From NCBI GenBank assembly GCA_027622665.1, contig JAQBYT010000039.1, forward strand, positions 1 through 34,976: a stretch of DNA of 34,976 nucleotides. The letters run 5' to 3'. The notes under the pieces were generated by a model. The model saw nothing but the letters and a program-made list of their open reading frames with translations, was not told the DNA's origin and ran no database searches. The stretch is from Verrucomicrobiota bacterium. Its GTDB lineage: Bacteria; Verrucomicrobiota; Verrucomicrobiia; Opitutales; Seribacteraceae. Of this stretch, positions 8,442-34,976 are shown in pieces (positions within the stretch are counted from its first letter, which is position 1; each line of letters begins with the position of its first letter). Made by a program: the position numbers and the translations under genes.

Positions 8442-8468
8442 TTGACAGACTTTGGCTAATAGTAATGT
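8442..8468 (+). promoter_or_regulatory. Alternative candidate promoter
   Basis: Consensus TTGACA (8442-8447) and TAATGT (8463-8468), but the spacer is only 15 nt. Confidence 0.25.
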
Positions 8469-8701
8469 GATTTAACAGTTTAAGTTTTGAAATAAGAACT
8501 TTCACTGGTTCCAATGTTGAAAGAATTCCCAATTCCTAGAGTTTCAGTTGATCTTCTCGAAAGAGAGGCCTTTGGTCGCTTTTTATTTGTTAGCGCGCGT
8601 ATGCTCGACAAGCATAATGCATTAAAACATGCGCCTGATTTTTTGACCAAAACTCGATATACTTTCACTCGTAATCGAAACTTCACAAATAATTGGGGGA
8701 A

Positions 8702-11700
8702 ATGAACTTGGTGAACAAACCACTGATTACCAGCATTACCCGACTGGGATTGACGATACTTTCGTTTATCAGTGGTTTCTGGATAGCGCCCGGTGCCAGA
8801 GCCAATGCAGTTAGACCGGTCATCACAGTAACCTCCCCTACCTATGCCTATCCTATCCCTGTTGGAGTAACCTTCCAGCAGGACGGTGACGCCAACGTGT
8901 CAGTCACGGGTTTCGACGTATCCGATCTCAACGTAACGAACGCCAACGTTGTCGCGAATAGTTTCAGTGGTTCGGGCCATGCTTACACCTTCAACCTCAC
9001 GCCGACTTCCGATCCTGCCCGAATTACGGTATCCATTCCCGCCGGTGCCGCCAACGGCGACGGCAACGCCTCCGTGGCCAATTCGATGACAATCGAATAC
9101 TTTTGGCTTGAAGTAACCCGCTCCGCCGACCTCGCGCTATGGTACAGATTCAACGAGACGTCCGGCGGAACTGCATTAGATTCAAGTGGGAATGGCCAAG
9201 ACGGAACCCTGAGAAACATGGACGATGCCGATTGGGTGGATGGCAAATACGGCAACGCCATCGATCTCGACGGAAACAACGACGATGTCCTCACTCCGCT
9301 CGACGGACATCATAACATGGACTACTCATGGTCTGTCTGGATCAATACCACCGATGGCAATGGAGGTATATTGAGCATAACGGAAAACAACTGGAGTCAG
9401 GGCGGGAAGGGTCTATACGTCAGCGGAGGCAATCCCCAGATCGATGCGGGCTGGGTAAGCAACGGCATAGGCCCGATCGCGCTAAACGATGGATCGTGGC
9501 ACCACGTTGCCCTTACGATAAAGGATTCCCAGAGCAACTCGGATCCCTACGTCATCTACCTCGACGGTGTGTCCACTAAGTCCGGTGCTATGGATTGGTT
9601 CCAGTTCGACGGCACCGCTCAGGATCTTCGAGTGGGGTATATCGGAATTGATGACGGCAAAGCACTCGCAGGCAAACTGGACGACCTCCGGATCTACGAG
9701 GGCGTCCTCACCCCCAACGACGTCGCGGCCATCTACGCCGGGGATATAGGTACTCCGAAAATCTCGGGGCCGGCTACCGCTAGCGCCAACCCCGGTTTTC
9801 CCTTTAGCCTTTCCGACTTCAACGCCACTGTCACTAACTCTCTTTTCCCTCCCACATGGTCTGCCTCCGGCCTACCTGCAGGCTTAACCATTGATGCCTT
9901 AACCGGGGTAATCTCGGGAACTCCAACGGGCACCCCTACCGCAGCCGGCACCAAGAGCGACGCCAACGTGACTGCCACCAATGGTTACGGAAGCACTAAA
10001 CACACTCTCGCCATCACGCTCTTCCCCTTGCCCTCGGTCGCCACCGTCGCTCCGGCCACCGACTTGTCCTTATACGGGGCGAAGGCGAATGGTTCCTTCA
10101 CCGATGCAACAGGTACTGCCTGCATAGCAACCGTCTACGTGGACACTACCGACAAAGGGACATCCGACGCATCGGCGTGGAGCTACTCCTTTCCACTTGG
10201 TACAGTCGAGTCCGGCGATATCAGTCGCGAAGTGACGGGGCTAGCCATCGACACCACATATCGTTATCGTTTTTCCGTGGCCAATGCAGGCGGCATCCCG
10301 GTCTGGACGAACGCAGCCGGCTCGTTCACCACCTTGCCCCAACTATCCCCTCCCCTTTTGGGCGAAGTCAACGCCTCAGACACAACTTCCTACTCATCCA
10401 CCGTCAACGGCATGCTCGCCGACACCGGAGGAGAGACCCCCACCGTGACCATCGTGTGGGGTGACGAGGATCGTGGCACCGACTACGCCGACCTCGACAT
10501 CTGGGACAACAAGGTCACCCTCGGTTTGATCGGCTCGGGCACCTTCTCTATCAACCTGACCGGCCTCCAGTTAGGCAAGGTCTATTACGCCAGGACCGCC
10601 GCCGCCAACGTTGCGGGTAAAATCGTCTCCACGAGCATGGCCGTGCTTACACCATCCTTCAAGCCCTTGGCATCTATTTCTCCGAGCAACTATGCCGGTC
10701 TCCAGATCTGGTTTGACGCAAACGATTCGTCCACACTGTGGCAAGACGCGGGCGGGACTTCACCGGCCGGCCCCGGCACCGCTGTCGAGCAATGGAACGA
10801 CAAGTCCGGCAACGGACATACGGCCACGCGCACCGCGGGCACATTGTCGCTTGTCGGCAACCAAATCAACGGCATGTCGGTGGTTAATTTCGCCGACAAC
10901 ACCTATGCCAACGTCACGGGAAGCATCCATTCCAAGCAACAGTACTTTGTGTTCAACCTGTCGAACGTCGGCGACTGGGGCAGTGTTCTGGGTAGCCAGC
11001 AGCGGAGTGGATACATGCTCAATAGAAACGGCTACATGTGGGATCTGAATTACCCGGCAGCCGTCAAGCAGAACGGTGGCGCCGAGTTGAGCGGCAACTT
11101 CCAGTTGAGCAACATAAGCAACTTCATGATCGTCAGGGTCACCGGGAATAACACAAGCGTCAGGTCGGGGTGGGCTCTAGGTCGACAAGAAGGCTGGGGG
11201 AGGCTTGATATGAACTTGGCCGAGGTCATCTCCTTCGACACCACCTTGTCGACGATTGAAGAGTACGAGCTGGAAGGCTACCTTGCGCACAAATGGGGAC
11301 TGGCCGACAAACTCCCCACTTCCCATCCATACAAGACTGCCGCACCCCCTCCCGCCATCACCAGTCCCGCCACATCAAGCGCTACCGTGGGGCAGGCATT
11401 CGGCTTTCAAGTGACTTCAAGCATCACTGCATCCTACTACGCATACAACCTGCCTCCGGGTCTGACCTGCAACCTGTCCACCGGGTACATATCGGGTACG
11501 CCGACGGTAGGCGGCGTCTACGCAGTGACTCTTCTGGCCGAGGGCGCTTCGGTTTCCGCCACGGGCAGTCTCACCATCACTCTACCCACTTCCTCTCCGA
11601 TCATCACCACTGCCTCCGCCACAAACGTCGTAGCCAATGCCGCCACGTTGATTGGCCAGATCACCAACACCGGCGGACGCGACGCCAACGTAACCGTCTA

Positions 11701-14700
11701 TTGGGGCACAGTCGACGGAGGGCAAGGCTCTTGGCAGAATGAGCAGAACCTCGGAATCAAGGGAATCGGCGAAATCGTCCTTAATGTTTCGGCACTTCTT
11801 CCGGGGCAACTGTACCACTATCGTTTCAAGGCGGACAATTCTCAGGGCGGGACAGGCGGCGCAGTCTGGACAGTCGGCGGTAACTTCACGACAACTTCCT
11901 CCGCTCAATCCCCAACCCTAGGCAACGTATTCTCGGTCACCGACGTAACCAACAGTTCCGCCAAGCTGACCGGTTCGCTCGCCGGAACCGGTGGAGATAC
12001 CGTCACATACACCTTCCACTGGGGCCCGACGGACGGGAATCAAACAGTGGCAAACTGGGCAAACCACATCGCCATAAACAATGCCGCGATAGGTAACTTG
12101 AGCGCAGAAATCACCAGCGTCATGACCCCTCCCGCCATTTACTTCGCCCGAGGTGAAGCCAGTAACTCGGTCGGTTCCATCTGGACTGAAACCATGCTGG
12201 TATTCAGCCCGGTAAAAATGGGTTCCGCCGGTTTGATGACCACTTTCCCCGGTCTCAAGCTTTGGCTTAAGGCAGACGCCGAAGCAGACGGAGCTAATTG
12301 GCTCGACCAGTCGGGCAACGCCAACCACGCGACCAAGCAAGGCTCTCCCACATTAGTGGAGAACACCTTGAACGGCTTGCCCGTAATGCGCTACAGCGGG
12401 ACCAACGGCGAGTATCACGGCTTCACCAACATGACCGACATAAGAACCGTGTTCTGGGTCGTAAAGCGGAACACCGGATCTCCTTCTTTTCTGCTGGGAG
12501 ACAACAACGTATATCATTTCCACTCGGACGGCAGCTCGACGTTTGAAGGTAGGTCGAGCCCCAACGCAAGGAACGGCTCCCTTGCGTTCAACGGCGCGAC
12601 TACCACATATCAAACACCTATACCTAGCGCCATGACCGTGATCTCCCTGCGCACCACCGGAGACGTCGAAGCCAACAGTTTTTCCAACGACCGAAACATC
12701 GGAGGGAGATATTGGAACGGCGACTTGGCCGAGTTATTGATCTACGACACTCCCCTAAACGACGCCGAGATACGCAACACCGAGGGCAGTTTGTCCTGGA
12801 AGTACGGTCTGCAGGGAGACTTGGTCTCCGACCATCCCCACAGGAACGCCGACCCGTCGTCACCCCAGCCCGTTATCTCAATCACCAATTCTCTTTCGGC
12901 TGAAGCCGCCAAGGGAATGGCCTTCACATACCAAATCACTGCTACCGGTTCGCCCACCTCATACGGTCTCTACAACACCCCCTCTTGGCTCGACTTAAAC
13001 GCGAGCACCGGAGTTATTACGGGAACCCCACCCATCGGCGGCGTGTACAAAGTCAGCATCTCCGCTGCCAATAGTCTTGGTTCAGACGTCAAGGAGATGA
13101 CCATAATTGCAGGTGACAACGCCCCCTTCGAGTACTCGCTAGACATTACTCCCGATTATGCCGGCTCCAATCAATTGACCGATTGGCATATGCTAATCAA
13201 ACTGAGCGAGAGCAACGCGACCCTATACAACCTAGGCTTTCGCTACAAGCAGTTCAAGGCCGGCGGGGCCGACCTGCGCTTCCAGACAACCGCAGGAGTC
13301 GAGTGTACTTACGGGATAAGCCAATGGAACCCGCAGGGTGAGTCTACCATTTGGGTGCGCGTACCCACCCTCTCGGCGGGTGATAAGATCATAATGCGCT
13401 GGGGAAACCCCAACGCCACTGCGCCCGCATACAGCGACAACTTCCAACTACCTTCGGCCTCGCCTCCATCCCATGTCCCGGAGGCAAGCGACTACGACGT
13501 CGCCTATGCCTTGGACATCCCGACTTCGGCTGGCTGGAACTCCAAGGCAATCCCTTACTCGGCGGACACCTCAGCCGACATCGTCAACGGGTCCTTCACT
13601 CGCATTGCCTACTACATGGAGCTTGTGGACGGAAGCGGGACGAAATGGGTTTGGGTGTCCATGGATAAATTTACTGACGATGCCAGGCTACTGGGCGTGC
13701 CCAATACCTCATCGGGCGAGTTTTGGCATTACGGCATAACCGGCCCGATAACAAACGCCAACATCCTCTCCAACGCTAATGGAATAACTACCGGAAACGG
13801 GATCAACACCGTCAATCTGGAGTTCTGGCCGAGCAACTACAACGGAAGCAATGGTTACGGCGTTCCGGGAGCAAACGCAGGCAAGCATGACTTTGGCGAC
13901 GGCGGTGCAGGAACCAACGCCGGTTATGCATCCATGCAGGTGCACAACTACGGAGCCGGCCAAACCCTCTTCGCCTACAACTCTTGGGGTTCCGGCAATG
14001 GCGAACTGGGAATCGGCAATCGAAGCACGGGCGAACCCGATTGGACCTTCTCCAACAATATCGGAAGCTATTCGGCAAGAAAGCTCATGGTCTTGGTCTT
14101 CAGCGGTAGTAAACCAGACGCCCTCGCCTTCTCCGGCTTTCAAGGTCCGCCGTTTTTCGTGGGCTCCGCCAACCTTTACGGAAAGAAGGGCTCACCCTTT
14201 TCCCAACAACTCGACTACCGAGGCTCAGACCCAATGGTATACTCGGCCGTTGGTCTGCCTCCGGGACTATCCCTAAACGTAGTCACCGGCGAGATCAGCG
14301 GCACGCCACTTACAACCGGGGAAACCGGCATCACGGTAACGGTAGACGGACAAAACGCCTCGGGAACCCCTCGTTCCGAGACGCGCTCCTTCTCCATCAA
14401 GTTGTCCGATCCATCGGCCTTTCCCATGAAAATGGCCCTTACCCTATCGGGCTATGACGGTAATTCGACACTGAAGGATTTCCCCGTCCTGATCGACTTT
14501 CATCCCGGCTTAAACAACTTTTCCTACTCCACTTTCCTATCCTCGACCGGAGGAGACCTACGTTTCTTCGGAAAGAACGGACAAGAACTTCCTTACGAGA
14601 TCGAGAACTGGGACGTCACGGGACGTTCCCGCATTTGGGTGAAGGTCTCCTCCGTATCCGGAGTCAACACCTCGATCACCGCGGCATGGGGCAACCCCGC

Positions 14701-26700: not shown

Positions 26701-29700
26701 TCTGGAAAATAAAAATGATTCTAATTCAACCGATGGCTGGGCCATTTTCACTGAAAGCAACAACGACACCAATGTCCTTGTTCGCGGTTCTTCCAACGCC
26801 GCCATTTCTCCGAACGTAACCTCTTCCTGGAAAGCGAACAATTGGCATCACGTAGTCGCGGCTTTCAACTTCGCAAACGTCGAGGTCTTTGCTGACGGAA
26901 TATCCCGGTCTTCGGGGGGCGTCGACCCCGTGAAACCCGGTGGTAAATCTCTTAAAATGGGCAAATGGCATAACGGCAACGGCAACACCTTTGAGGGGCT
27001 CATGGATGATCTGCGACTTTACGACAAGGTCTTGACGGCCAATGAGGTGGTCGCACTATTCGGAGGTGGTTCGGGCGACTTCGCGCGTTCGTCGACCGGC
27101 ACTGCCGCAACGATTAAGAATAGCGGCACAGTCACTCTTACAGCTCACGCTTCCGGAACCAAGTCCATGTACTCCGCGAACACTGTGAGCAAAACGGTGA
27201 CCATCGGAAAAGCTCCCTTGACGCTTACTGCCGACGACAAGACACGGAACGTCGGGGTAGCCAACCCGCCTTTGACCCATTTCGTAAGCGGTTTCGTAAA
27301 CGACGACAACGAAACCACAGGTCTCACATCGACCATTTCGCTTAGCACTGAAGCCAATGCTTCCAGCCCGGAGGGCACCTATGCAATCGTTCCAAACGCA
27401 ACTGCAGACAAATATTTCATCACCTACCTGAACGGATCCTTAATAGTTAGCAACAAGACCTCACAGTCGATCTCCTGGACCCAAGACTTCTCTAATATCG
27501 CCTTAAACCAGTTCGTGGACCTCAACGCGAGTTCTACTTCCGGATTGCCGGTGCTCTATGCCATTGCGAATCCGGACATCGCCGAACTCGCCGTATCACT
27601 CCAAGGAAACTTGGATGCATGGTGGAAGATGGACTCTCCTTACGGTTCCACCATATTCGACTCCTCGGGCCAGGGCGGAACCGTTCGCAACGGCATCCTC
27701 CAAGGAACCGATGGTTCATCCTCCAGAACCGTAGGCAAATTCGGAAACGCACTGATCCTAGATGGTACGGATGATCATGTGCTGATACCCGGATATGCAG
27801 GAATAACCGGAAAAAGTCTCCGGACCATTGCGCTCTGGTTCAAAACCACAGTGGACAATCGCCCGCTGCTCTCCTATGGAGGACCGGGCAACGGCGCATT
27901 GTTCGCAATCTCTCTAAACTCGGGCAAGGTGTCTCTCGACTTGGGAGGAACCACGCTGGAGGGCGGGACCAGCCTCGCGGACGGCGCATGGCACCACTTA
28001 GCCGCAGTCGCTCCAATGGATGCGGATGCCTCGGAAGTAAAGCTCTACGTAGACGGAGCGCAAGTGGCTTCGGGAAGCGGAACAACCTCCATAAACACCG
28101 CTGCATCTAGCTTTGTTAAACTCGGAACGGACGGAGTAAACTACTTCAACGGCCAACTGGACGACGTTCGCTTCTACGCCGCCGACCTGAACGCCAACGT
28201 AATAGCCAAAGTGTACGGAGCAGGCATTGGTGACTTCAACCGCATTCGCATGAAGGGTGCGGGAACCACCTTCATAACCGCTAGCCAACCGGGAGACGCA
28301 ACCTTCTCATCAAGCACCAACGAGAGCACTCAGATTACGGTTGGCAAACTCGATCAGACCATCGCCTTCGCTCCCCTGCCAAACAAATCCATTGGCGACT
28401 TCGACTTCGATCCGGAAGCAGAAGCCAGTTCCGGTTTATTCGTCACATACCAAAGCTCAAACCCGCTGGTCGCCTCTGTCGAAGGAATTACCCCGGGGAG
28501 TCAGACCATCAAGATCCGCACTGCCGGCACCACGACGATAACCGCCACTCAACCCGGCGACTCATCCCACAACCCCGCAACAGCAGCCAGCCAAGTTCTA
28601 TCTATTGGTTACTACAAGCTTTTCAAGGAATCGATTTCCGGCATGGAACTGTGGCTCGATGGAAACAACGTGAACGCAGATGCGCTCTCCGATTCCATAA
28701 CAAGCGGTTCTCCCCTTTACATTTGGAACGACTCATCCGGGAACAACCGCAATGCCATACAGGCAACACCTGCCAATGCGCCAATATATAAAAAGAACGC
28801 CTCCGAGCTCACGGGAAAAGGCTTTGTCGTTTTTTCTTCCGTTACCAAAATTCTCGAACTGCCTGCAGTCAACGGTCCCAAGACCATCTTTGCGATATTC
28901 AGGCAAACGGGACTTGCCGCTAAAACCAAGTTACTCGGCGGCGATCTCGTCTCCACCTCGACGAGCGGAAACGTAGCCCTACAAAGGGAAGGTGGAAATC
29001 CCTTGATCGACTCATCAACTTCAGCGGCATCCTTTCACATAGTAACTTGGCAAGGTGACGCCGGAGCCTATGCCTTACACGTGGATGGCGCGGCAAAGGG
29101 CTCGGGAACGGATGCGCAGTCATTGGCGTCACTCACCAAAGTCGGCAACGGCTTGATCGGTCAGGTGACCGAAATCGTCGTCTACAACCGTGTGCTCCCC
29201 TCACCCACCCAGCGAAAGATCGAAGGTTATCTGGCTCACAAATGGGGACTCCCAAGCCAACTGCCAAGCGTACACCCCTACAAGAATCTACTGCCAACCT
29301 TTGGCGGAGAACAACAGCTCTATTTTCAGCCGATATCCGACAAACCGGTTGGAAACAATTTCCCGTTAACCGTCACCTCGGACTCTGGTCTCACTGAGTT
29401 CACCTACGACAGCAACGACTCAAGTATCGCCTCGATCACAGGAAACATCGTGTCCACCCATAAGGAAGGAAAAGTAACGATCACCGCCATCCAACAAGGC
29501 GACTACAACTGGTTTCTTGCCTCTGCCACTAGAGTACTCACAGTAACCTCCACACCTAGAAACGAACAAACCATAACCTTTGGGCCGCTGCCGGACAATA
29601 CTGCTCTCGACGCTCCGTATGATCTCAATGCCACCGCGTCGTCCGGCTTGCCCGTAAGCTACCAGAGCTCGAATCCGGCCGTCGCTACGATCACAGGATC

Positions 29701-32700
29701 GAATGTAAGTATCGTATCTCAAGGCATCACCACCATACGAGTCTCACAAGACGGTAATGGAAACTTTAACGCGGCTCCCTTCGTCGAACAGCAACTAACC
29801 GTAACAAAAGTCCCCCAAACCATCAATTTCGCACCTCCTCCCGCTCAGCCTCTCAGCACCGGAGCATTCATACTCGAAGCCAACGCCAGTTCGGGACTCG
29901 GCATCACCTTCGTCAGCGACACCCCATCAGTCGTCTCTATCGCAGGAAACATGGTCTCTCTCTTAGCAGGCGGCACAACGAGAATCACGGCTATACAACA
30001 AGGCAACGCAACCTACGAAACCGCTCTGGACGTTACCCGGACCCTTACCGTTGTAGATGTCTTCGCAAACATGCCCCCAACAGTCGCCAACACCCTTCCG
30101 GACCTGAACGCCATCGAGGATGACGCCAACGTATTCGTCAACCTAGCCAACGTATTCGACGATGAAGACGACAACAACAGTATCATCACCAAAACGGCAG
30201 TCTCCGGAAACGCGATCCTTCTAGCCGTAACGGTCACCGGCAACACACTCGAGCTAGACTTCCAACCCGACATGTTCGGCTCCACCATCGTCACCGTAAC
30301 GGGAACGTCAAATGGCATGCCGGTAAACGACTCGTTCCTCGTCAACGTCGCCCCGGCAGACGACTCGCCGGTAACGGCAAACGAAATCACCGATGTAAAC
30401 GTGACTGAAGACGCCTCCGACACTTTGATTAACCTCTCCAACGTATTCAACGATGTTGACGATGACAATACAACCATCGCCAAGACGGTGGTTTCCACCG
30501 ATCCATCTCTGGTAACGGCTACGGTAAACGGAAACATCCTAACGCTCGAATATCAGGCGGAACAAAACGGTACGGCAACGATCACGGTGACGGGAACATC
30601 GAACGGACAAACTGCCGTCGACACCTTCACTGTTACGGTCATGAGCGTGGACGACCCACCGATTGCAGTAATTGCGATTGCCGACGTCACCGTGAATGAG
30701 GATGCGGCCAACACGGTGATCAACTTATCGAACATGTTCAATGATCCTGACAACGACAACACATTGATCACCAATACCGTAGTCTCAAGCGTTCCCACTT
30801 TAGTGATAGTCTCGGCAAGCGGCAACACAGTAACTCTCGACTATCAACCTAATCAGTTCGGCTCCGCGACGATCACAGTAACGGCGACCTCGAACGGATT
30901 GACGGTCGATAACAACTTCACGGCGACCGTCACTTCAGTCGATAATCCTCCGATAGTGGTAAACCAGATTGCCGATGTGAACGTAACCGAGGACGCATCT
31001 GATTCGGCTATAAACCTCTCAAACTTATTCAACGATCCGGACGACAACAATACTTCGATCACGAAGGCGGCGGTTTCGAGCACCCCGTCCCTGGTAACGG
31101 TTTCCGTAAGCGGCAACACCTTGACGCTCGACTATCAGGCGGAGCAAAACGGCACCGCAACGATCACGGTGACGGGAACATCGAACGGACAAACTGTCGA
31201 CGACATGTTCACTGTTTCGGTAACGAGCGTGGACGATCCGCCGGTGGTGGCAAACGCGATCACAGACGTAAACGTACTCGAAGACGCTGCCGACACCACG
31301 ATCGATCTCTCTAACATGTTCAACGACATCGACGACAACAACGCATCGATCACAAAGACGACAGTTTCAAGCGACCCATCTCTGATCACGGCTACGGTCA
31401 ACGGAAACATCCTGACGCTGGACTATCAACCTGATCAAAACGGCACAGCTACCGTAACGGTGACGGGAACCTCAAATGGACAAACGATTGACGACACTTT
31501 CACTGTTGCGATAACCAGTGTGAACGATCCTCCGGTGGTGGCCAACGCGATCACCGACGTAAACGTACTCGAAGACGCTGTCGACAGCACGATTGATCTG
31601 TCTAACTTGTTCAACGACGTGGACGACGACAACATGTCGATCACAAAGACGGTGGTGTCAAGCGACCCATCTCTGGTAACGGCTACGGCAAACGGAAACA
31701 TCCTGACGCTGAACTATCAACCCGAGCAAAACGGCACCGCTACGGTAACGGTGACGGGAACCTCGAATGGACAAACTATCGACGACACTTTCACTGTTGC
31801 GATAACGAATGTGAACGATCCGCCGGTGGTGACAAACGCGATCGAAGACGTAAACGTGATCGAAGACGCCGCCGACACCACGGTCGATCTGTCCAATTTG
31901 TTCAACGACGTGGACGACGACAACGTATCGATCACAAAGACGGCGGTTTCAAGCGACCCATCTCTGGTAACGGTCTCAGTAAGCGGCGACACCCTGACGC
32001 TGGACTATCAACCTGATCAAAACGGCACCGCTACGGTAACGGTGACGGGGAACTCAAATGGACAAACTGCCGACGACACTTTCACTGTTGTGATCACGAA
32101 TGTGAATGATCCACCCGTGGTGGCAAACCCGATCAGTAACATCAATGTAAACGAAGACGCTGCCGACAAGACTATCGATCTCTCGAATATATTCAACGAC
32201 GTGGACGACGACAACGCATCAATCACTAAATCAGCGGTTTCAAGCGATGCGTCCCTAGTGGCGGCATCGGTAACCGGCAACACACTCACTCTTAGTTTCC
32301 AACCCAATCAATTCGGCACCGCTACGATTACGCTAACGGGAACCTCAAACGGTCATACCGTTGACCAAGCATTCACGGTGACTGTGACGATCGCCAACGA
32401 CCCGCCGGTGGTGGCAAACCTGATCACCGACGTAAACGTACTCGAAGACGCTGCCGACACCACGATCGATCTCTCCGACGTATTCAACGACGTGGACGAC
32501 GACAACGCATCGATCACGAAGACGGTGGTTTCAAGTGCCCCTTCTCTGGTAACGGTTTCCGTAAGCGGCGACACCCTGACGCTCGACTATCAGCCTGAGC
32601 AAAACGGCACCGCGACGATCACGGTGACGGGAACATCGAACGGACAGACAGTGGACGACATCTTCACTGTTACGGTGACTAGCGTGGACGATCCGCCGGT

Positions 32701-34976
32701 GGTGGCAAACGCGATCACCGACGTAAACGTACTCGAAGACGGTGCCGACACCACGATCGATCTCTCCAACTTGTTCAACGACGTGGACGACGACAACGCA
32801 TCGATCACGAAGACGGCGGTTTCAAGCGACCCATCTCTGATCACGACTACGGTGAGCGGAAACATCCTGACGCTCGACTATCAGGCCGAACAAAACGGCA
32901 CCGCTACGATCACGATCACCGGAACATCGAACGGACAGACAGTGGATCACACCTTCAGTGCTACGATGACTAGCGTGGACGACCCACCGGTTGTGATAAA
33001 AGCGATCGCGGACTTGACGGTGATGGAGAACGCTCCCAACACAGTGACGAACCTCGCGAACGTATTCAACGACGTCGACGACAATAACGCATCAATAATC
33101 AAGACCCTGCAAGCCAACAGTGATCCTGGTCTCGTCACCGCGACCATCGCTGGAAACGACCTGACCCTCGATTTTCAACCTAACCGGTTCGGATCCTCCA
33201 CTATCACCTTGCTGGCCAGCTCGAATGGAAAAACAGTGGAAGACTCCTTTGAGGTGAATGTTTCGCCCGTCGACGACGCCCCCGAGGTGATCAACGGCAT
33301 AGCCGACGTTTCGGCCGAAGAGGATGCCGACGATTTCATCGTTTCGCTTGCAAACGTATTCAACGACATCGACGACGACAACGCGTCCATAGGCAAGACC
33401 CTACAAACCAACACCAATCCCGGACTGGTCGCCGCGACCATCGTGGGCGACGAGCTCACCCTCGACTTCCAACCGAACCAGTTTGGATCCACGACCATCA
33501 TGGTGCGAGCCACTTCAAACGGAAAAACCATAGAGGATTCATTCGAAGTGAATGTTACTCCCGTTGACGACGGTCCCGAGGTGAGCATCGGTGTAGTAGA
33601 TGTTTCGGTCGAAGAAGACGCCAACGACTTAGTCGTTTCGCTTGCAAACGTATTTAACGACGTCGACGACGACAACGCATCAATAGGCAAGACCCTACAA
33701 GCCAACAGCGATCCCAGTCTCGTCACCGCGACAATTGCAGGAAACGAGCTCACCCTCGACTTCCAACCGAACCAGTTCGGGTCTTCCTCAATCACCGTGC
33801 TGGCCAGCTCGAATGGAAAAACAGTGGAAGTCTCCTTTGAGGTGAATGTTTCGCCCGTCGACGACGCCCCAGAGGTGGTCAACGGCATAGCCGACGTTTC
33901 CGCCGACGAGGATGCATCCGATTTCATCGTTTCGCTTGCAAACGTATTCAACGATATCGACGACGACAACGCGTCCATAGGCAAGACCCTACAAACCAAC
34001 AGCAATCCCGATCTCGTCACCGCGACCATCGTGGGCGACGAGCTCACCCTCGACTTCCAACCGAACCAGTTCGGATCCACGACCATCATGGTGCGAGCCA
34101 CTTCAAACGGAAAAACCATAGAGGATTCATTCGAAGTGAATGTTTCTCCTATCGACGATCCCCCCGTCGTCTTAAACCCTATTGCGGATTTGGTATCCTT
34201 GAACACCGGGCCGAATATAACAATCAACCTATTCAATGTCTTCAACGATGTGGACGACGACAACGCATCCATCCAAAAAGCAGTTATTTCCGGCAACCCC
34301 TCCCTCGTCACCACGAGCATCGATGCCGATATCCTCACCCTCGATTTCCAAGCGGATGCAAACGCCTCGACGACGGTAACGGTAACCGCTACATCAAATG
34401 GTCAGGCAGTGGACGCAGTCTTCAACGTAGGCGTGTTCGAACCGAACGCTCCTCCCGTCACCGCCAACCCCATCGCCGATGTCGAGGTATTGGAGGACGC
34501 CCCCGACAGAACAATCGACTTGGCCCAAGTATTCGACGATCCTGACGACGAAGGCATCACAAAAACCGCGGTATCCAATCCCCCCTTCCTCGTCATCGTT
34601 ACCGTCGTAGACGATGCCCTCAGTCTAAACTTTCAACCTAATTCATTCGGCACTGCTACAGTTGTGGTGACGGGAAATTCCCGAGGACAAACCGTGGACG
34701 ACGTCTTCACGGTGACGGTCGCCCCCGTGGACGACGCTCCCGTCGTGACAAACGCGATCTCAGACGTTTTCGCAGACGAGGACGACCCCGACTTCGTTCT
34801 GTCCTTGATGAATGTATTCAACGACGTCGACGACGACAACACGTCCATACTCAAAACAGTACAAGCCAACACCAATCCCGGACTGGTCACCGCGACCATC
34901 GTGAGCGACGAGCTCACCCTCGACTTCCAACCGAACCAGTTCGGGTCTTCCTCAATCACCGTGCTGGCCAGCTCGA
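8702..34976 (+). CDS. Giant (at least 8,758 aa) Sec-exported multidomain adhesin/lectin-like protein, 3'-truncated by the window
   Basis: In-frame TAA at 8690-8692, then ATG 8702. Alternative starts TTG 8708 and GTG 8711 are better spaced from GGGGGA at 8695-8700. Signal peptide MNLVNKPLITSITRLGLTILSFISGFWIAPGARA|N. The same frame still reads DFQPNQFGSSSITVLASS at 34922-34975. The ORF track lists no + ORF in this frame after 8702, consistent with no internal stop, and manual translation gives coherent domains throughout. Confidence 0.95.
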   Translation, partial: MNLVNKPLITSITRLGLTILSFISGFWIAPGARANAVRPVITVTSPTYAYPIPVGVTFQQDGDANVSVTGFDVSDLNVTNANVVANSFSGSGHAYTFNLTPTSDPARITVSIPAGAANGDGNASVANSMTIEYFWLEVTRSADLALWYRFNETSGGTALDSSGNGQDGTLRNMDDADWVDGKYGNAIDLDGNNDDVLTPLDGHHNMDYSWSVWINTTDGNGGILSITENNWSQGGKGLYVSGGNPQIDAGWVSNGIGPIALNDGSWHHVALTIKDSQSNSDPYVIYLDGVSTKSGAMDWFQFDGTAQDLRVGYIGIDDGKALAGKLDDLRIYEGVLTPNDVAAIYAGDIGTPKISGPATASANPGFPFSLSDFNATVTNSLFPPTWSASGLPAGLTIDALTGVISGTPTGTPTAAGTKSDANVTATNGYGSTKHTLAITLFPLPSVATVAPATDLSLYGAKANGSFTDATGTACIATVYVDTTDKGTSDASAWSYSFPLGTVESGDISREVTGLAIDTTYRYRFSVANAGGIPVWTNAAGSFTTLPQLSPPLLGEVNASDTTSYSSTVNGMLADTGGETPTVTIVWGDEDRGTDYADLDIWDNKVTLGLIGSGTFSINLTGLQLGKVYYARTAAANVAGKIVSTSMAVLTPSFKPLASISPSNYAGLQIWFDANDSSTLWQDAGGTSPAGPGTAVEQWNDKSGNGHTATRTAGTLSLVGNQINGMSVVNFADNTYANVTGSIHSKQQYFVFNLSNVGDWGSVLGSQQRSGYMLNRNGYMWDLNYPAAVKQNGGAELSGNFQLSNISNFMIVRVTGNNTSVRSGWALGRQEGWGRLDMNLAEVISFDTTLSTIEEYELEGYLAHKWGLADKLPTSHPYKTAAPPPAITSPATSSATVGQAFGFQVTSSITASYYAYNLPPGLTCNLSTGYISGTPTVGGVYAVTLLAEGASVSATGSLTITLPTSSPIITTASATNVVANAATLIGQITNTGGRDANVTVYWGTVDGGQGSWQNEQNLGIKGIGEIVLNVSALLPGQLYHYRFKADNSQGGTGGAVWTVGGNFTTTSSAQSPTLGNVFSVTDVTNSSAKLTGSLAGTGGDTVTYTFHWGPTDGNQTVANWANHIAINNAAIGNLSAEITSVMTPPAIYFARGEASNSVGSIWTETMLVFSPVKMGSAGLMTTFPGLKLWLKADAEADGANWLDQSGNANHATKQGSPTLVENTLNGLPVMRYSGTNGEYHGFTNMTDIRTVFWVVKRNTGSPSFLLGDNNVYHFHSDGSSTFEGRSSPNARNGSLAFNGATTTYQTPIPSAMTVISLRTTGDVEANSFSNDRNIGGRYWNGDLAELLIYDTPLNDAEIRNTEGSLSWKYGLQGDLVSDHPHRNADPSSPQPVISITNSLSAEAAKGMAFTYQITATGSPTSYGLYNTPSWLDLNASTGVITGTPPIGGVYKVSISAANSLGSDVKEMTIIAGDNAPFEYSLDITPDYAGSNQLTDWHMLIKLSESNATLYNLGFRYKQFKAGGADLRFQTTAGVECTYGISQWNPQGESTIWVRVPTLSAGDKIIMRWGNPNATAPAYSDNFQLPSASPPSHVPEASDYDVAYALDIPTSAGWNSKAIPYSADTSADIVNGSFTRIAYYMELVDGSGTKWVWVSMDKFTDDARLLGVPNTSSGEFWHYGITGPITNANILSNANGITTGNGINTVNLEFWPSNYNGSNGYGVPGANAGKHDFGDGGAGTNAGYASMQVHNYGAGQTLFAYNSWGSGNGELGIGNRSTGEPDWTFSNNIGSYSARKLMVLVFSGSKPDALAFSGFQGPPFFVGSANLYGKKGSPFSQQLDYRGSDPMVYSAVGLPPGLSLNVVTGEISGTPLTTGETGITVTVDGQNASGTPRSETRSFSIKLSDPSAFPMKMALTLSGYDGNSTLKDFPVLIDFHPGLNNFSYSTFLSSTGGDLRFFGKNGQELPYEIENWDVTGRSRIWVKVSSVSGVNTSITAAWGNPATGADPSYFIDGSTWGNGFSGTWHFTNVVAGSFSDSSPLRNHAINNGATVDTVGEIGPAADFNGASTASVVYSPSLNPSKFSASAWVKRAIPPANGINGFLGFGYEQNINNNYFEDIELLRALTPNGSNFVLGEPDNPEGNGFFFDGDADFQNAGIGISRNDQYMDLWSANFNAPENGNYFFQMDQADDSAAIWVDLDQDNLFETNGTNGNEKIGGPSNFTSSAIALVAGQTYKIALAHGEGGGGSRFRAWIQTPSLSMRVIKPFEPAQNGFFTNDPLLKDSTIFSTQDKSGPNGYALHSKNGKFQFRSGGNADPQVAHNNDVWHHLGMTYDGTTKRLYLDGSTAGESVMTVDRNTVSDFNIGSAWDGLIDELRISSTVRSADWIQASFDNQRLASDFVSYGNVTSPRLITSTLNASVSAWDAFDYNVTAVGSPYLYTAFNLPNGLQFNATTGNISGNPTIAGSFPVSLMAFYANDDGNVTDSDSIPDVVGSTDSTEPAKQVILQLNVISTPPVIQTTEASSVSANSASFNGNVISDGGDPPTVRIYYGTQDGGIDPTAWLNMLEIGKKGQGTFGHIIGSLIPEVTYHYRVRAFNSAAPDGVWGSGTFVPGAKATGSIEITGDPNEGPPRTGLIGEWLFDGDNANDTSGNGYDGNSSANVVYSADTPWGTGKSVNLNNNAYITVDDGTANQSIFDLDRLSISFWAKEWPSNGWGAYVAKYGEGGQGYQIRRNGGDASKLSWTLRGPSNDDWNAVVNDGGQFNKWVHVLAAFGDGIRKLFLNGVEKGSENRGGNINDTTSMLAFGCKDNNGNFAFAPGAYSNAFMDDIRIYDRLLTENEISRLSAIALQITIPLRTGGSIVYGGGPLEDLNATPPVWKHTGTPAAIAASLKACIEDDGGHNGEITVTNPSTGNLTLTQSNTGIFAQSITGNLGGQNANYLSGFTGGINDSDPSKTFTTPSSDLPVVDNGNLRDVSDTGATLTGLVPHIGAGAVTNEDLRFSADKFQNLMFWVDANNSESLDKGGSFGSEGSPANGDTVGYWGDLSGNSNNATPHLGDSAREPTYLAAGLNGKPAIYFDGTDDVLVAQNSATFDDWENLTVFIVAEGNNTADWSPLISKNGEDNQGWLFGKRNGAQSRWRVHGTSGAVDQNLNLTPNAIRIWSLTYGDGTRKSFGDGLLQASLTDTGKIAAAPNSPLAIGALVRNNGNLESHANLLVSEVLVFKKSFADKDRHLVEGYLAHKWGLTGNLDSSHPYKSMKPGEPSNGVDLTLYWGSSDGETTPNHWENSIELGKYFSKRTSSGFQGTGYLVNPNGNYFNDIETLRSLSSQLPPKLINGEPDDSATNGFYFDGDDDFKNSGIGINRNDNYMDLWISDFWPKETGYHIFRMDRKDDYVTIWIDLDQNGLFQTTGDKGNERLGGTNNFDSAPIPLIAGQSYKIALAHGEDQGGSGFRAWIETPTLSDRVINPLEPAQDGLYAAVLGLSNGAPQNSQIKLESTLSNLQPGQTYHYRLHGSNSLGSVWADTTAVFVAEKKINLSTGSLTFKTDGPIPNWYTTSGQSGTGELVSNSYIDQEGNTISYDVAKFEFASLYVGDGAKVHLQGNNTLEIAVSGDATILVPLDLNGSEGTDAGNSNLPGRLGGGHGGHEWKNAADPWGRGGDPANLTTVSSFNSGGKPLAGMNGNAGLATGQEPGGGGFGGRGGRSETVVASGEHQLVQPGGQTYGDADITHLFGGSGGGGGNERSGGTGGGGIKIVAGETLTIGGSIHAIGGKGGARPNEARQSGGSGSGGAIYLKGKHIVIQQGVSIKADGGDGATGITNGNTYVTDGIGGGAAAGGGGRIFMEATESLLNIESSTNSNFSTNGGISPGYRHGVSGSMKILKPQVTELVFHSGTITIDTDKGTINHSDGSFLAGSLTENFFLSSAGTAYPYKICTFIADRINLGVNLSVNLKGTAALSLRTRNHGDIIISANIVANGGNNPTDDDGGIGRLAGWDGGKKQRDGQGPGKGKDRTQSNIGGGGGYGGPGWTNQNQLLTHGLSYGDSKVTHLIGGSGGGGGGNKGGGAGGGAIELMADGVGTITIGATAKISVNGGDTTDKIGGGGAGAGGSIRLIGASIVNNGTLEATGMAITSDMNGGGGRIAFVSDGKLIVGTTNVTGFQPGTVSVLGNNDVTDLAFSTGTLFINTTNGTWHHSDGKHGTGVISMGDDSGIPYGICAYTFDSINLPAGLTVVLEGHNALILKTRNHGNIVVETDLKADGGNSVDADDPWGNNLYTYTGGKGKLGGHDGGPSNANGTGPGKGKASVGNGEGGGGGYGSAGAGSDEATYGMTYGGEALSHLHGGSGGGGGGNRGGGAGGGAISLEADGNGTLTIGAGATISANGGISTRGDNEGGGGSGGSLRFAGKSITNNATIEAKGGDVVGNGNQSYDGGGGRVAFNYSYNLNQGTVDIGTGSYAGTIAENTPPIIVGDLNATATYSNENYPPPVTQQEHLTGWWEFDNPTNLGEDSSENLSHLNDNGNPTFHATGKWDGAIYLDGNDMLEQGAVFPSNVPTGGTAYSISCWINPDQGGNRGIVGWGTYGSASRVNALRMNGNNDIYNYWWGNDLNAGSGGDLRTGTSPDGWHYILATYDPALGSNRQKIYIDGLIKAQRNASGLNAGAGSFTIGRTGTNEYFQGLLDDLRIYATALTTSDLAQIYAGDIVKAIPSINFAVTALKGPQSYSAIDLPDALTINPTSGLISGTTMAIGEHNVTIQASNLSGASAPQTLVLTVRPNIPILLDLNASTVGATYAMVDFSILDTGGENPALTLFHGTTDGNQTSGDWTANVPLGTLGSGIHSASLTGLTNNTQYFLRARAVNSAGTVWTVDHNFTTSALVGPPIIATLPSTSVTTTSSTISGNLFSYDGGDQPNVTLYYGDEDNGTNDSAWDNSVVIGSKGIGTFTHNLTGFTPGTRYFYRFKAVNSGGTAHSAGAGAFVTIGTPAIEDKPATNLTETSGTLNARITALGGVTYFIGAPFNNASLPGLIMWMDGNDPNGDGTSDTNTSNITVWNDKSADARHLAWTRGDPQFEANVLNGMGVVDFDGNDGIGQNDKTMYNDTANGFSMFAVSRYDGTDSERVISSIENWNWHFAGHGQYHTRIANFNGWGYLGTDTEQDNNDWHIYEVTHTNTDRGNYWLDAVKVGTDTTGSGDGDNWRPKRIRFSGWQEGNLEESQCQIAEFLTFNRVLSEEERLKVEGYLGQKWGLHATMFANNHPYVSVDPFHPLITQGGEQASVTFYWGDDNGSANGNVWDNNHGVAGTHDLGLIKHDLTGLTKGATYYYSAKVSNSGGDAWAQTRTFAPANRLLGKDTISGLVLWLDASDMDGDNSIDDLANGSAIASWTDKSNQANQALQTIAANRPTYKKSVFGEKPGINFDGTGDFLYLVDSLRLTAGPISAYVMSKRDVQGGDSAAYLLGENIWNLTAGPGNSPYSPEIKKFSASSGKTITNLKIGKDGTSSSFDFAGDIAEVLIFDRELTSEETDQVEGYLAHRWGASASLFSNHSYRESPPSFDNSPKITMKPYVSPVGVVPIPLSPAIISSMNVWFDANDSSTTNTNWSDKSGNGHTATRTAGTLTLVDNALNGMPVVNFADNTYANVTGNMYSKQQYIVFNLPNVGDWGSVLGSQQRSGYTFNRSGYMWNTNYPAAVRQNGGPELSGNFQLSNIGNYMVVRITGNNNNTSVRSGWALGRQEGWGRLPMNLAEVVSFDTTLSTIEEDELTGYLAHKWGLVGDLPASHPYKYLRFKSSKRYVLHVGTPMNLQVETTKGPESYSAGSTLGQYGLSINSNTGLISGTPDKLGDFNCTISVLNSSGSDTKSFFFRALKGTKSINWDQSLVGLTYGDAPVELNASATLGGVSYSSSDETIVAFGGQEVRNPILENGLVRYWAFDEANGSTTASDVRGSFDGALAGGAAFVAGKFGNAVEFDGSTAEVDFGLGAGDLGDKFTISVWVKWTGADSPANAMRILENKNDSNSTDGWAIFTESNNDTNVLVRGSSNAAISPNVTSSWKANNWHHVVAAFNFANVEVFADGISRSSGGVDPVKPGGKSLKMGKWHNGNGNTFEGLMDDLRLYDKVLTANEVVALFGGGSGDFARSSTGTAATIKNSGTVTLTAHASGTKSMYSANTVSKTVTIGKAPLTLTADDKTRNVGVANPPLTHFVSGFVNDDNETTGLTSTISLSTEANASSPEGTYAIVPNATADKYFITYLNGSLIVSNKTSQSISWTQDFSNIALNQFVDLNASSTSGLPVLYAIANPDIAELAVSLQGNLDAWWKMDSPYGSTIFDSSGQGGTVRNGILQGTDGSSSRTVGKFGNALILDGTDDHVLIPGYAGITGKSLRTIALWFKTTVDNRPLLSYGGPGNGALFAISLNSGKVSLDLGGTTLEGGTSLADGAWHHLAAVAPMDADASEVKLYVDGAQVASGSGTTSINTAASSFVKLGTDGVNYFNGQLDDVRFYAADLNANVIAKVYGAGIGDFNRIRMKGAGTTFITASQPGDATFSSSTNESTQITVGKLDQTIAFAPLPNKSIGDFDFDPEAEASSGLFVTYQSSNPLVASVEGITPGSQTIKIRTAGTTTITATQPGDSSHNPATAASQVLSIGYYKLFKESISGMELWLDGNNVNADALSDSITSGSPLYIWNDSSGNNRNAIQATPANAPIYKKNASELTGKGFVVFSSVTKILELPAVNGPKTIFAIFRQTGLAAKTKLLGGDLVSTSTSGNVALQREGGNPLIDSSTSAASFHIVTWQGDAGAYALHVDGAAKGSGTDAQSLASLTKVGNGLIGQVTEIVVYNRVLPSPTQRKIEGYLAHKWGLPSQLPSVHPYKNLLPTFGGEQQLYFQPISDKPVGNNFPLTVTSDSGLTEFTYDSNDSSIASITGNIVSTHKEGKVTITAIQQGDYNWFLASATRVLTVTSTPRNEQTITFGPLPDNTALDAPYDLNATASSGLPVSYQSSNPAVATITGSNVSIVSQGITTIRVSQDGNGNFNAAPFVEQQLTVTKVPQTINFAPPPAQPLSTGAFILEANASSGLGITFVSDTPSVVSIAGNMVSLLAGGTTRITAIQQGNATYETALDVTRTLTVVDVFANMPPTVANTLPDLNAIEDDANVFVNLANVFDDEDDNNSIITKTAVSGNAILLAVTVTGNTLELDFQPDMFGSTIVTVTGTSNGMPVNDSFLVNVAPADDSPVTANEITDVNVTEDASDTLINLSNVFNDVDDDNTTIAKTVVSTDPSLVTATVNGNILTLEYQAEQNGTATITVTGTSNGQTAVDTFTVTVMSVDDPPIAVIAIADVTVNEDAANTVINLSNMFNDPDNDNTLITNTVVSSVPTLVIVSASGNTVTLDYQPNQFGSATITVTATSNGLTVDNNFTATVTSVDNPPIVVNQIADVNVTEDASDSAINLSNLFNDPDDNNTSITKAAVSSTPSLVTVSVSGNTLTLDYQAEQNGTATITVTGTSNGQTVDDMFTVSVTSVDDPPVVANAITDVNVLEDAADTTIDLSNMFNDIDDNNASITKTTVSSDPSLITATVNGNILTLDYQPDQNGTATVTVTGTSNGQTIDDTFTVAITSVNDPPVVANAITDVNVLEDAVDSTIDLSNLFNDVDDDNMSITKTVVSSDPSLVTATANGNILTLNYQPEQNGTATVTVTGTSNGQTIDDTFTVAITNVNDPPVVTNAIEDVNVIEDAADTTVDLSNLFNDVDDDNVSITKTAVSSDPSLVTVSVSGDTLTLDYQPDQNGTATVTVTGNSNGQTADDTFTVVITNVNDPPVVANPISNINVNEDAADKTIDLSNIFNDVDDDNASITKSAVSSDASLVAASVTGNTLTLSFQPNQFGTATITLTGTSNGHTVDQAFTVTVTIANDPPVVANLITDVNVLEDAADTTIDLSDVFNDVDDDNASITKTVVSSAPSLVTVSVSGDTLTLDYQPEQNGTATITVTGTSNGQTVDDIFTVTVTSVDDPPVVANAITDVNVLEDGADTTIDLSNLFNDVDDDNASITKTAVSSDPSLITTTVSGNILTLDYQAEQNGTATITITGTSNGQTVDHTFSATMTSVDDPPVVIKAIADLTVMENAPNTVTNLANVFNDVDDNNASIIKTLQANSDPGLVTATIAGNDLTLDFQPNRFGSSTITLLASSNGKTVEDSFEVNVSPVDDAPEVINGIADVSAEEDADDFIVSLANVFNDIDDDNASIGKTLQTNTNPGLVAATIVGDELTLDFQPNQFGSTTIMVRATSNGKTIEDSFEVNVTPVDDGPEVSIGVVDVSVEEDANDLVVSLANVFNDVDDDNASIGKTLQANSDPSLVTATIAGNELTLDFQPNQFGSSSITVLASSNGKTVEVSFEVNVSPVDDAPEVVNGIADVSADEDASDFIVSLANVFNDIDDDNASIGKTLQTNSNPDLVTATIVGDELTLDFQPNQFGSTTIMVRATSNGKTIEDSFEVNVSPIDDPPVVLNPIADLVSLNTGPNITINLFNVFNDVDDDNASIQKAVISGNPSLVTTSIDADILTLDFQADANASTTVTVTATSNGQAVDAVFNVGVFEPNAPPVTANPIADVEVLEDAPDRTIDLAQVFDDPDDEGITKTAVSNPPFLVIVTVVDDALSLNFQPNSFGTATVVVTGNSRGQTVDDVFTVTVAPVDDAPVVTNAISDVFADEDDPDFVLSLMNVFNDVDDDNTSILKTVQANTNPGLVTATIVSDELTLDFQPNQFGSSSITVLASS
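9125..9745 (+). other. LamG-like jellyroll (Laminin_G_3-type) domain; related copies at ~14735-15880, 16590-17225, 22160-22795, 26440-27080, 27605-28235
   Basis: LALWYRFNETSGGTALDSSGNG...GNAIDLDG...SWSVWI...NDGSWHHVALT...IYLDG...GKLDDLRIYEGVLTPNDVAAIY. Confidence 0.85.
10690..11340 (+). other. Second LamG-like subtype (WxDA...EGYLAHKWG...HPY); related copies at ~12245-12850, 17710-18470, 23755-24460, 24745-25335, 25430-26030, 28635-29290
   Basis: GLQIWFDAND...WNDKSGNG...NGMSVVNF...LAEVISFD...EGYLAHKWGL...HPYK. Confidence 0.75.
13125..13430 (+). other. DUF2341-like domain (second copy ~14420-14705)
   Basis: GADLRF...YGISQWNP.GESTIWVRVP...MRWGNP and GDLRFF...ELPYEIENWD..GRSRIWVKV...AWGNP. Confidence 0.75.
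14990..15517 (+). other. PA14-like domain (second copy ~18595-19123)
   Basis: DQYMDLWSANFNAPENGNYFFQMDQADDSAAIWVD...IALVAGQTYKIALAHGEGGGG, with the PA14-type DD motif at 15260-15265 (18866-18871 in copy 2). Confidence 0.7.
19290..22080 (+). repeat. Three tandem Gly-rich units (~290-350 aa; starts ~19290, ~20345, ~21200)
   Basis: Each contains GGGG(F/Y)G...(T/S)YG...HLxGGSGGGGG...GG(A/T)GGG(A/G)I...GGxIxL...GGGGR(I/V). Confidence 0.85.
27205..27450 (+). other. MBG-type Ig domain
   Basis: KAPLTLTADDKTRNVGVANPPLT...SGFVNDD...ANASSPEGTYAI...YLNGSLIV. Confidence 0.75.
30068..34976 (+). repeat. Array of at least 17 tandem cadherin-like repeats (291/294 bp; 97/98 aa; unit 16 is 285 bp), continuing past the window
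   Basis: Unit starts at 30068, 30359, 30650, 30941, 31232, 31523, 31814, 32105, 32396, 32687, 32978, 33272, 33566, 33860, 34154, 34445, 34730. Consensus DDPPVVANxIxDVxVxEDAxDxxIDLSNVFNDVDDDNASIxKT...LTLDYQP.QxGTATITVTGTSNGQTVDDxFTVTV. Confidence 0.95.

Follow-up and report, generated by a model that had tools for sequence, protein, structure and literature searches.

Several described surface proteins resemble, each in some respects, the gene that is our subject here: a giant open reading frame (ORF) in a 34,976-nucleotide stretch of DNA from a Verrucomicrobiota bacterium of the order Opitutales (assembly GCA_027622665.1, contig JAQBYT010000039.1), the whole of which we call the window. One group consists of the RTX/Bap adhesins of the type I secretion system (T1SS), such as MpIBP, LapA and SiiE; MpIBP is reported to have a Ca2+-rigidified extender and to bind sugars through PA14 (PMC5550230). 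A second is the SprB-SprF pair of type IX secretion in Bacteroidota (T9SS, type B), in which a giant adhesin with a Sec signal and a conserved C-terminal module is reported to bind a barrel partner, the proposed anchor (PMC9143113). BapP of Pseudoalteromonas tunicata is described as a protein of 1,600 residues with a predicted Sec signal of the signal peptidase I type (Sec/SPI), an N-terminal propeller, Big_9/cadherin-like repeats with DxD motifs and an adjacent putative T1SS, and its authors left its export open (PMC12153261). InvL of Acinetobacter baumannii is an immunoglobulin (Ig)-like adhesin without a barrel of its own whose surface display needs type II secretion (T2SS; PMC9245377), and within the PVC superphylum the large proteins of Omnitrophota are encoded near T2SS-like loci (10.1101/2023.11.21.568195). 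Three elements at the very probable 3' end of our gene matter for the comparison: a tryptophan (Trp)-rich domain, a helical C-terminal tag, and the gene of an outer-membrane barrel that follows.

The giant shares with the RTX/Bap group a very long chain of β-sandwich domains, an acidic extender, PA14 and a marine setting. The order of the parts is reversed, however: in RTX/Bap adhesins, which carry RTX repeats and a T1SS signal but no cleavable N-terminal signal peptide, the anchor is N-terminal and the ligand domains are C-terminal, whereas the giant has a signal of the Sec type and no RTX motif of the GGxGxD type, and its genome has no T1SS-type HlyD or TolC over the cut-off. An earlier note on this DNA had likened the giant to LapA, SiiE and MpIBP, while pointing to the difference in the signal. 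The likeness stands for the giant adhesin-type domains and fails for the signal and for the polarity, which is the reverse of that of LapA and MpIBP. With SprB-SprF the giant has in common a Sec signal, its adhesin character and size, a conserved C-terminal module and a putative barrel partner. It differs in that no T9SS C-terminal domain (CTD) matches, SprA was not found, the barrel belongs to the OMP_b-brl type and is not PorP-like, and the pairing of tag and barrel is known from gene co-occurrence. BapP resembles the giant in its predicted Sec/SPI signal, its Big_9 and cadherin-like repeats and its propeller, and differs in its smaller size, the N-terminal place of the propeller and the putative T1SS beside its gene; the text consulted on it mentions neither a Trp-rich domain nor a tag or barrel partner (PMC12153261). 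InvL is an intimin-invasin lipoprotein and far smaller, and the giant has no N-terminal cysteine. The Omnitrophota giants carry transmembrane segments and SecA-like and enzyme domains, none of which was credibly detected in our giant by domain scans and hydropathy. By analogy, then, the giant would stand closest to SprB-SprF in its logic and to MpIBP and BapP in its parts, and it does not look like cargo of a T1SS, a type V secretion system (T5SS) or a T9SS.

On balance, we read the giant as a Sec-exported adhesin of the cell surface, at least ~10,700 residues long and tethered by its C-terminus. Its size is not exceptional, because the same genome has a complete frame of 13,430 codons and proteins of at least 10,000 residues are reported to be frequent in Verrucomicrobiota (10.1101/2023.11.21.568195). 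What we add is the pairing of the tag and Trp-rich domain with an adjacent barrel; in the titles and opening abstract lines of the open-access papers that our searches returned, we found no description of the Trp-rich domain, the tag or the barrel pairing.

The giant reading frame and its 3' end

The giant ORF runs from 8702 to 34975 on the forward strand, encodes 8,758 residues without a stop and is open at its 3' end, where the contig ends; a listing that admits open-ended ORFs gives it as 8693..34975. The earlier note had described a single uninterrupted frame that was missing from its ORF track, and our translation confirms the frame: the giant appears once run-off ORFs are allowed, and their omission by default probably explains the gap. 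Because the window is the entire contig C34 of the source genome (G000, a 4.5-Mb draft in 66 contigs that is 93.5% complete), the gene is truncated by the assembly. It is a real gene, and the cut falls inside its stalk repeats. Judged from base composition, a stop-free run of 8,758 codons has a chance of ~10^-149, and the GC content of the three codon positions (0.53, 0.48 and 0.64) is coding-like. Between 15000 and 34976, near-identical metagenome contigs of four out of four runs, from four studies, cover 30 of 30 bins. One run has a contig of 9,800 nucleotides (15793-25592), none of the contig pieces listed bridges the full stretch, and one run, which may be the source sample, shows no differences from the window. 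The indels listed over this stretch are a compensating +1/-1 pair and two 3-nucleotide gaps, which produce no net frameshift. For 8702-15000, the support consists of orthologue alignments rather than run contigs (43% across residues 3-651 and 77% across residues 1808-3687). Half or more of the words from the 3' end were present in 20 of the 24 listed runs, all aquatic or marine, and related frames occur in seven of the eight other genomes of the genus, three of them at 87-89% identity.

The long frame could be suspected of being an assembly chimera or a dead gene. It contains internal near-duplicates, its stalk repeats reach 91% DNA identity, and orthologous or related frames on the contigs of four relatives (L013, L016, L065 and L133) each have a single in-frame stop, a point against our reading that may reflect, in some copies, decay, strain variation or mis-assembly. 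In-frame stops and misassembly, which the earlier note had named as possible faults, did not turn up in the window: no stop was found, and the contigs of the four runs agree over 15000-34976. Together with the coding-like codon bias and collinear orthologues at 59-88%, this leaves a chimera or dead gene with almost no credence.

The continuation of the giant ORF is, very probably, contig C1 (G000:C1:1-5841). It opens inside the same repeat type and encodes 1,946 residues up to a stop, in the order five stalk repeats, He_PIG, Big_9, an Ig domain, a propeller, InlB B-repeats, the Trp-rich domain, the helical tag and an unnamed last domain. Among the 76 5'-open frames of the genome, only those of C1 and C50 start with stalk repeats. 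Repeats 1-2 of C1 find their best matches in the last repeats of the giant (73-77%). In a sister genome, one frame of 4,408 residues (G005:C77) spans residues 5238-8488 of the giant (69%) and residues 1-1724 of C1 (70-75%, compared with 57% for the paralogue upstream of the giant); another contig of that genome (G005:C66) starts with the last domain, followed by the barrel and the same downstream gene as C1. Orthologous frames in two further genomes (G007 and G001) likewise pass from stalk into C1-type sequence. Completing the cut repeat needs at least 14 residues, so that the minimum total length, given the join, is ~10,720 residues. Three other arrangements were rejected: C50 belongs with C32, the two aligning at 77-84% with a complete 1,957-residue protein of a relative, C22, the other stalk-bearing 3'-open end, overlaps C3 by 23 nucleotides, and the start of C34 bears a repeat type different from that at its end, which excludes circularisation of the contig on itself.

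Several points weigh against the join. No exact overlap of C34 with any contig end was found, no read bridges C34 and C1, the number of stalk repeats varies from 9 to 22 between genomes, and a metagenome scan with a 24-nucleotide pattern near the gene end gave no matches (reads were not mapped to the extreme end of C34 alone). The real tail could instead lie in the unassembled part of an incomplete genome or be that of another paralogue, the more so as the tails of giants have been duplicated and shuffled and the upstream neighbours of the gene differ in G005. With the other contig ends excluded, a contiguous orthologue in G005 and concordant frames in G007 and G001, we regard a tail other than C1 as very improbable. 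The stop that the earlier note had proposed to seek, along with any C-terminal sorting domain, most likely lies on C1, with its Trp-rich domain and tag, though without a bridging overlap.

Further giants occur in this genome, and paralogues with similar head domains carry another conserved tail type. The complete 13,430-codon frame (G000:C2:54505-14216, minus strand) has head domains in common with the giant and a different conserved tail, and its counterparts in G007 and G005 have 13,257 and 13,499 residues. The end of C14 (3'-open, 4,174 residues) and the start of C28 (5'-open, 4,393 residues) encode nearly the same peptide; together they probably represent a third, split giant of more than 8,000 residues with the other tail type.

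Tail modules and the adjacent barrel gene

If C1 is joined, the giant's own Trp-rich domain occupies residues 1527-1640 of that piece (E 1.6e-28), ~300 residues before the end. This domain of ~100 residues is found in 35 ORFs of the genome, and most of the complete ones have a hydrophobic N-terminal stretch. It lies at most 15 residues from the C-terminus in 23 of the 35 ORFs and in 128 of the 150 top library matches. At E<=0.001 it matches 4,668 library clusters. Across the order it was found in 62 of 201 genomes, as compared with 10 of 301 genomes sampled from the phylum. Neither Pfam nor NCBIfam has a family for it, and Atlas returned only unnamed Verrucomicrobiota clusters with a low recognition score. 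The predicted structure (mean predicted local distance difference test, pLDDT, 77) consists of all-β hairpins; a PDB search gave one weak sequence match (E 0.034), Foldseek none at E<=0.001 and VIA a best Z of 4.1, results that do not establish the fold as new. Direct comparison found the Trp-rich domain and the tag to be unrelated to each other, and the last domain has no match in Pfam or the PDB.

The window itself holds a second tail of this kind. Its upstream gene encodes, in order, Big_9/cadherin and Ig domains, an SBBP-type propeller, InlB B-repeats, the Trp-rich domain, the tag and the last domain, and its stop is overlapped by the start of a barrel gene that is paralogous to the one following the C1 tail; the two window genes form a tail-plus-barrel pair paralogous to that of C1. 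The genome has eight barrel paralogues, each with a signal peptide, an amphipathic helix, a Pro-rich linker and a barrel of the OMP_b-brl type, and five of them (one divergent) come directly after a Trp-domain gene. The relatives' barrel set comprised 40 of 115 listed loci outside this genome, from 12 relatives. Fifteen of these barrels have a Trp-domain frame upstream (14 strong, 1 weak), four follow a truncated C1-type end, two are orthologues of the divergent cases and one is unresolved.

We used a profile of the tag (the C-terminal helical segment of ~45 residues) that was trained solely on proteins of the 12 relatives. It ranks four barrel-adjacent Trp-domain ORFs top among 19,760 ORFs, so that tag and adjacent barrel occur together in four of four cases, versus none of the 31 other Trp-domain ORFs (Fisher p 1.9e-5, or 1.7e-4 with the C1/C34 duplicates counted once). 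Among held-out loci, with duplicates counted once (L004=L013, L005=L017, L007=L097, L009=L021, L012=L062), five Trp-domain proteins had neither tag nor barrel, one had both, and none had the tag alone. In a tree of the barrels, one row of which is a mis-cut fragment (L116), the coupled barrels cluster, with ~4 changes, which indicates shared descent, not binding. This co-occurrence leads us to propose, tentatively, that tag and barrel retain the giant on the cell.

Other observations tell against such retention. Three of the four tag matches in the genome are weak (E 0.077, 0.29 and 0.32), and the sole strong one is the orthologue of a training sequence. Three of the eight barrels here and 18 of the relatives' 40 have no Trp-domain neighbour, and a held-out barrel-adjacent protein (L121) has no scored tag. 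The barrel is not required, because an orthologue in another genus (G013) has the Trp-rich domain but lacks the tag, and no barrel gene adjoins it. The N-terminal helices of an 8-stranded barrel stay in the periplasm, which leaves the binding face ambiguous. Linkage, or shared descent of a gene cassette, could alone yield the pattern of tag and barrel.

Such points also lend themselves to a reading in which the giant would be a released glycoprotein that forms a matrix, a sheath or something like an S-layer, or would remain in the wide periplasm to serve as a scaffold of the envelope, with the barrel as a hitch-hiker. Neither the giant nor the C1 piece has a transmembrane or lipoprotein anchor (the highest 19-residue hydropathy is ~1.5, and the giant's first cysteine is residue 474, with none near the N-terminus), the giant is dense in glycosylation sequons, barrels without Trp-domain neighbours exist, and BapP, with its predicted Sec signal and Big_9 repeats, is reported to be largely extracellular (PMC12153261). 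Against this, the layout is polar, with lectin folds at one end, a stalk and a conserved tail, and the tag is restricted to barrel-adjacent proteins here and missing from all five distinct held-out Trp-domain proteins that lack a barrel. We therefore hold release or a scaffold role to be quite unlikely and keep to C-terminal tethering.

The Trp-domain proteins show some further features. The Trp-rich domain of the window and its paralogue at L011:4561-4950 have an inserted loop with four consecutive arginines that is missing from most copies. In five Trp-domain proteins (G000:C22:73149, C61:181847, C66:1333, C13:4151 and G013:C35), an InlB B-repeat is followed by a short, acidic, amphipathic end motif terminating in Phe-Asp/Glu; seen without an adjacent barrel, it is possibly a second tag type. 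Four Trp-domain genes (G000:C22:1600-3975, C12:51023-48654, C35:33018-31702 and C57:20915-14466) each precede a gene for an exported protein; these proteins resemble one another at their ends, may be FecR-like, and make up a second recurring type of neighbour.

Glycosylation and export

The earlier note had placed a signal peptide at 8702, and inspection by eye agrees with this: there are basic residues at K6 and R14, a hydrophobic stretch and A-x-A at 32-34, and in three orthologues the N-terminus is likewise hydrophobic and the A-x-A site holds its position although the sequence has diverged. The giant has 72 D/E-x-N-x-S/T sequons of the PglB type, versus 12.8 +/- 3.8 in shuffles. Most other large exported proteins of the genome have a similar excess, which several large proteins that lack such domains do not share, and an STT3 gene scores above the cut-off. 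The excess fits periplasmic transit and would speak against one-step type I export.

The genome encodes a complete T2SS in one operon on C47, with GspG, N-methyl pseudopilins, GspK, a secretin with Secretin_N, GspE and GspF. GspK was found in 143 of the order's 201 genomes; a comparison by hand puts it in 60 of the 62 Trp-domain genomes. This distribution is compatible with a T2SS route and not specific to it. Weighing against the route, GspK is also present in ~83 of 139 genomes without the Trp-rich domain, it was not found in two Trp-domain genomes (drafts that are 91-94% complete), and we know of no T2SS substrate of the giant's size. No linear signal defines T2SS cargo. InvL offers a precedent for an Ig-like adhesin exported by a T2SS, at a far smaller size (PMC9245377).

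Markers of other routes were largely missing. BamA is present. The single TpsB found adjoins its own TpsA on C9, and the two-partner secretion (TPS) domain has no match in the giant ORF. The autotransporter barrel PF03797 matched neither C1 nor the genome, and positive controls matched. No GGxGxD-hydrophobic motif occurs in the giant ORF or C1, and the Pfam scans returned no RTX family. In the 93.5% complete draft, T1SS-type HlyD (TIGR01843) gave four matches and TolC (TIGR01844) six, none over the cut-off, and the giant gene's neighbours are the barrel gene and unrelated genes, not T1SS genes. The T9SS CTD had no Pfam match on the whole of C1 and no NCBIfam match on its Trp-rich domain or last 246 residues; SprA was not found in four of four genomes of the genus, with two matches in the positive control; and the positive control of the PorP search was silent. 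Slam/DUF560 (PF04575) had no matches in the genome, its positive control being likewise silent. The C1 end has no hydrophobic helix of the PEP-CTERM type, and its last 246 residues had no NCBIfam match. Provided that C1 is the tail, the canonical autotransporter or T1SS C-terminus that, in the earlier note, would have made export ordinary is not there. That note had called the export route unexplained. The question is narrowed by a probable C1 tail with lineage-specific modules and by the complete T2SS, which we would cautiously name as the likeliest route across the outer membrane, with an undescribed translocon next. One isolated gene of the genome (G000:C5:59442-60800) encodes a T9SS Por_Secre_tail domain, in the apparent absence of SprA; it was possibly acquired from Bacteroidota or is a binning stray.

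In the translocon alternative, a lineage-specific, T9SS-like machine of the outer membrane would recognise the Trp-rich domain as its export signal, with the barrel as a cargo-specific shuttle or anchor and the T2SS uninvolved. A domain found on many cargos, C-terminal and restricted to the order is typical of a sorting domain; it has no fold match, the cargo-plus-barrel gene pairs resemble SprB-SprF, and two Trp-domain genomes have no GspK match. Moreover, a PilM-type operon with a 1,254-residue secretin (G000:C55:386361-421148, operon L082) lies directly before two Trp-domain giants of 4,457 and 3,984 residues and is a possible dedicated export locus. On the other side, no candidate translocon was identified, no co-occurrence search for one having been made; in six of the 35 ORFs the Trp-rich domain is internal by more than 100 residues, and in one it is close to the N-terminus; and both GspK-negative genomes are incomplete drafts. 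We judge this alternative unlikely, and continue with the T2SS as the provisional route.

Head, stalk and proposed display system

The features of the window are collected in Table 1. The head is a string of 7,100 residues and ~50 domains that ends at residue ~7,120; the stalk begins at ~7,121 with the first of 17 repeats, in agreement with the boundary near 7,100 drawn in the earlier note. Besides the domains tabulated, the head holds about seven He_PIG and about ten Fn3-like domains. When type B LamG copies were run singly, one of four matched Laminin_G_3, and their LamG label is partly putative. The glycine-rich blocks belong to no Pfam or NCBIfam family, and their nearest Atlas clusters are unnamed; they are possibly polyglycine-helix domains. 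The domain-scan matches of the giant include no credible catalytic domain, and NCBIfam matches to TafC and LipL53, with scores far below the cut-off, were discarded as fold likeness of LamG and propeller domains. Upstream, a G-rich stretch lies immediately 5' of the ATG, and the intergenic region 7937-8701 (765 nucleotides) is AT-richer (GC 0.43 in 8001-9000); a promoter and terminator scan of 7900-8750 stayed at chance level, with no promoter-like excess over shuffles.

Table 1. Features of the window, all on the forward strand
Feature	Position	Strand	Basis and remarks
Upstream 5'-open gene, 2,225 residues	3..6680	+	its tail is paralogous to that of C1
Unnamed Trp-rich all-β domain (~100 residues), window copy	5436..5771	+	profile search, model
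Helical-hairpin-like tag	5967..6119	+	on Trp-domain proteins preceding a barrel gene
Unnamed last domain (~160 residues)	6195..6677	+	common to three ORFs of the genome, all barrel-adjacent
Outer-membrane protein	6677..7936	+	signal peptide, amphipathic helices, Pro-rich linker, OMP_b-brl-type barrel
Predicted Sec/SPI signal peptide	8702..8803	+	cleavage after A34; sequence, hydropathy, orthologue N-termini
N-terminal Ig-like domain	8810..9106	+	Big_12, below cut-off
LamG/ConA-like type A, 5 copies	9131-9736, 16607-17224, 22166-22783, 26450-27061, 27611-28216	+	Pfam Laminin_G_3, repeat map
LamG-like type B, 7 copies	10688-11347, 12245-12856, 17702-18472, 23750-24472, 24737-25333, 25418-26032, 28628-29296	+	repeat map
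DUF2341, 2 copies	13151-13432, 14414-14986	+	Pfam, self-match; flank a ~230-residue domain at 13439-14131 without family
PA14/GLEYA-type, 2 copies	14999-15541, 18605-19129	+	Pfam PA14 E 2.3e-8, GLEYA E 9.2e-8; self-match
Glycine-rich blocks, 3	within 19274..22018	+	25% Gly; 12 GGxGG motifs versus 1 elsewhere
MBG_2 and Big_2-like Ig domains preceding the stalk	27209..30055	+	Pfam, repeat map
Stalk, 17 repeats of 97-98 residues, last one cut	30065..34975	+	Big_9/tandem-95 type, acidic positions, D/E-x-N-x-S/T sequons

In the stalk, Big_9 matches 10 of 16 repeats, and acidic columns are conserved across them, at positions that we take to resemble cadherin Ca2+ sites. Both Ca2+ stiffening and ligand binding are predictions from motifs only. 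A PDB sequence search with the stalk gave no credible match, and a structure model built without an alignment was uninformative (pLDDT 40). Pfam matches of the stalk to ATP-grasp_4, Ribosomal_L19 and PipB2_N were rejected as noise summed over repeats, with no passing stretches. MpIBP is reported to have more than 130 domains and a length of 0.6 um (PMC5550230); scaled from it, ~22 stalk repeats would span roughly 0.1 um. The earlier note had pictured a multivalent distal head on an extender. Lectin-fold N-terminal domains and an acidic cadherin-like stalk support that picture, but the head is a long string of domains and not a compact tip, and the stalk makes up only about a fifth of the chain.

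We propose the following course for the giant. It would be exported by Sec, on the evidence of its sequence and its orthologues, and would then be N-glycosylated in the periplasm by a PglB/STT3 enzyme, the gene for which is present. The folded bead-string would cross the outer membrane, most likely via the T2SS encoded in the genome, and the C1-encoded tail, in which the Trp-rich domain is joined to the helical tag paired with the downstream 8-stranded barrel, would retain it. About 22 acidic Big_9 repeats would stiffen in the Ca2+ of seawater and raise the LamG/PA14/glycine-rich chain, and the raised head, to judge from its domain families, would bind glycans on particles, algae or other cells. 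One bloom study speaks against such attachment, as it reports cells of a marine Opitutales family, not necessarily that of this genome, to be mostly single and unattached (PMC8857213).

A wider reading, which we regard as doubtful, is that marine Opitutales have an uncatalogued display system in which the Trp-rich domain marks Sec-exported, N-glycosylated giants and a subset of these is docked by the tag onto a co-encoded barrel, a principle arrived at independently of SprB-SprF and without a T1SS, T5SS or T9SS. How large Sec-exported proteins of Verrucomicrobiota pass the outer membrane and are retained there is not settled in the open-access literature that we found. The giant gene makes the question testable, with a named T2SS operon, a domain of ~100 residues, a tag of ~45 residues and a small, expressible barrel. 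If a glycosylated chain of ~1 MDa does pass through a secretin, the presumed cargo range of the T2SS would be widened, and if tag and barrel do bind, they would constitute a new anchoring pair with a possible use in surface display.

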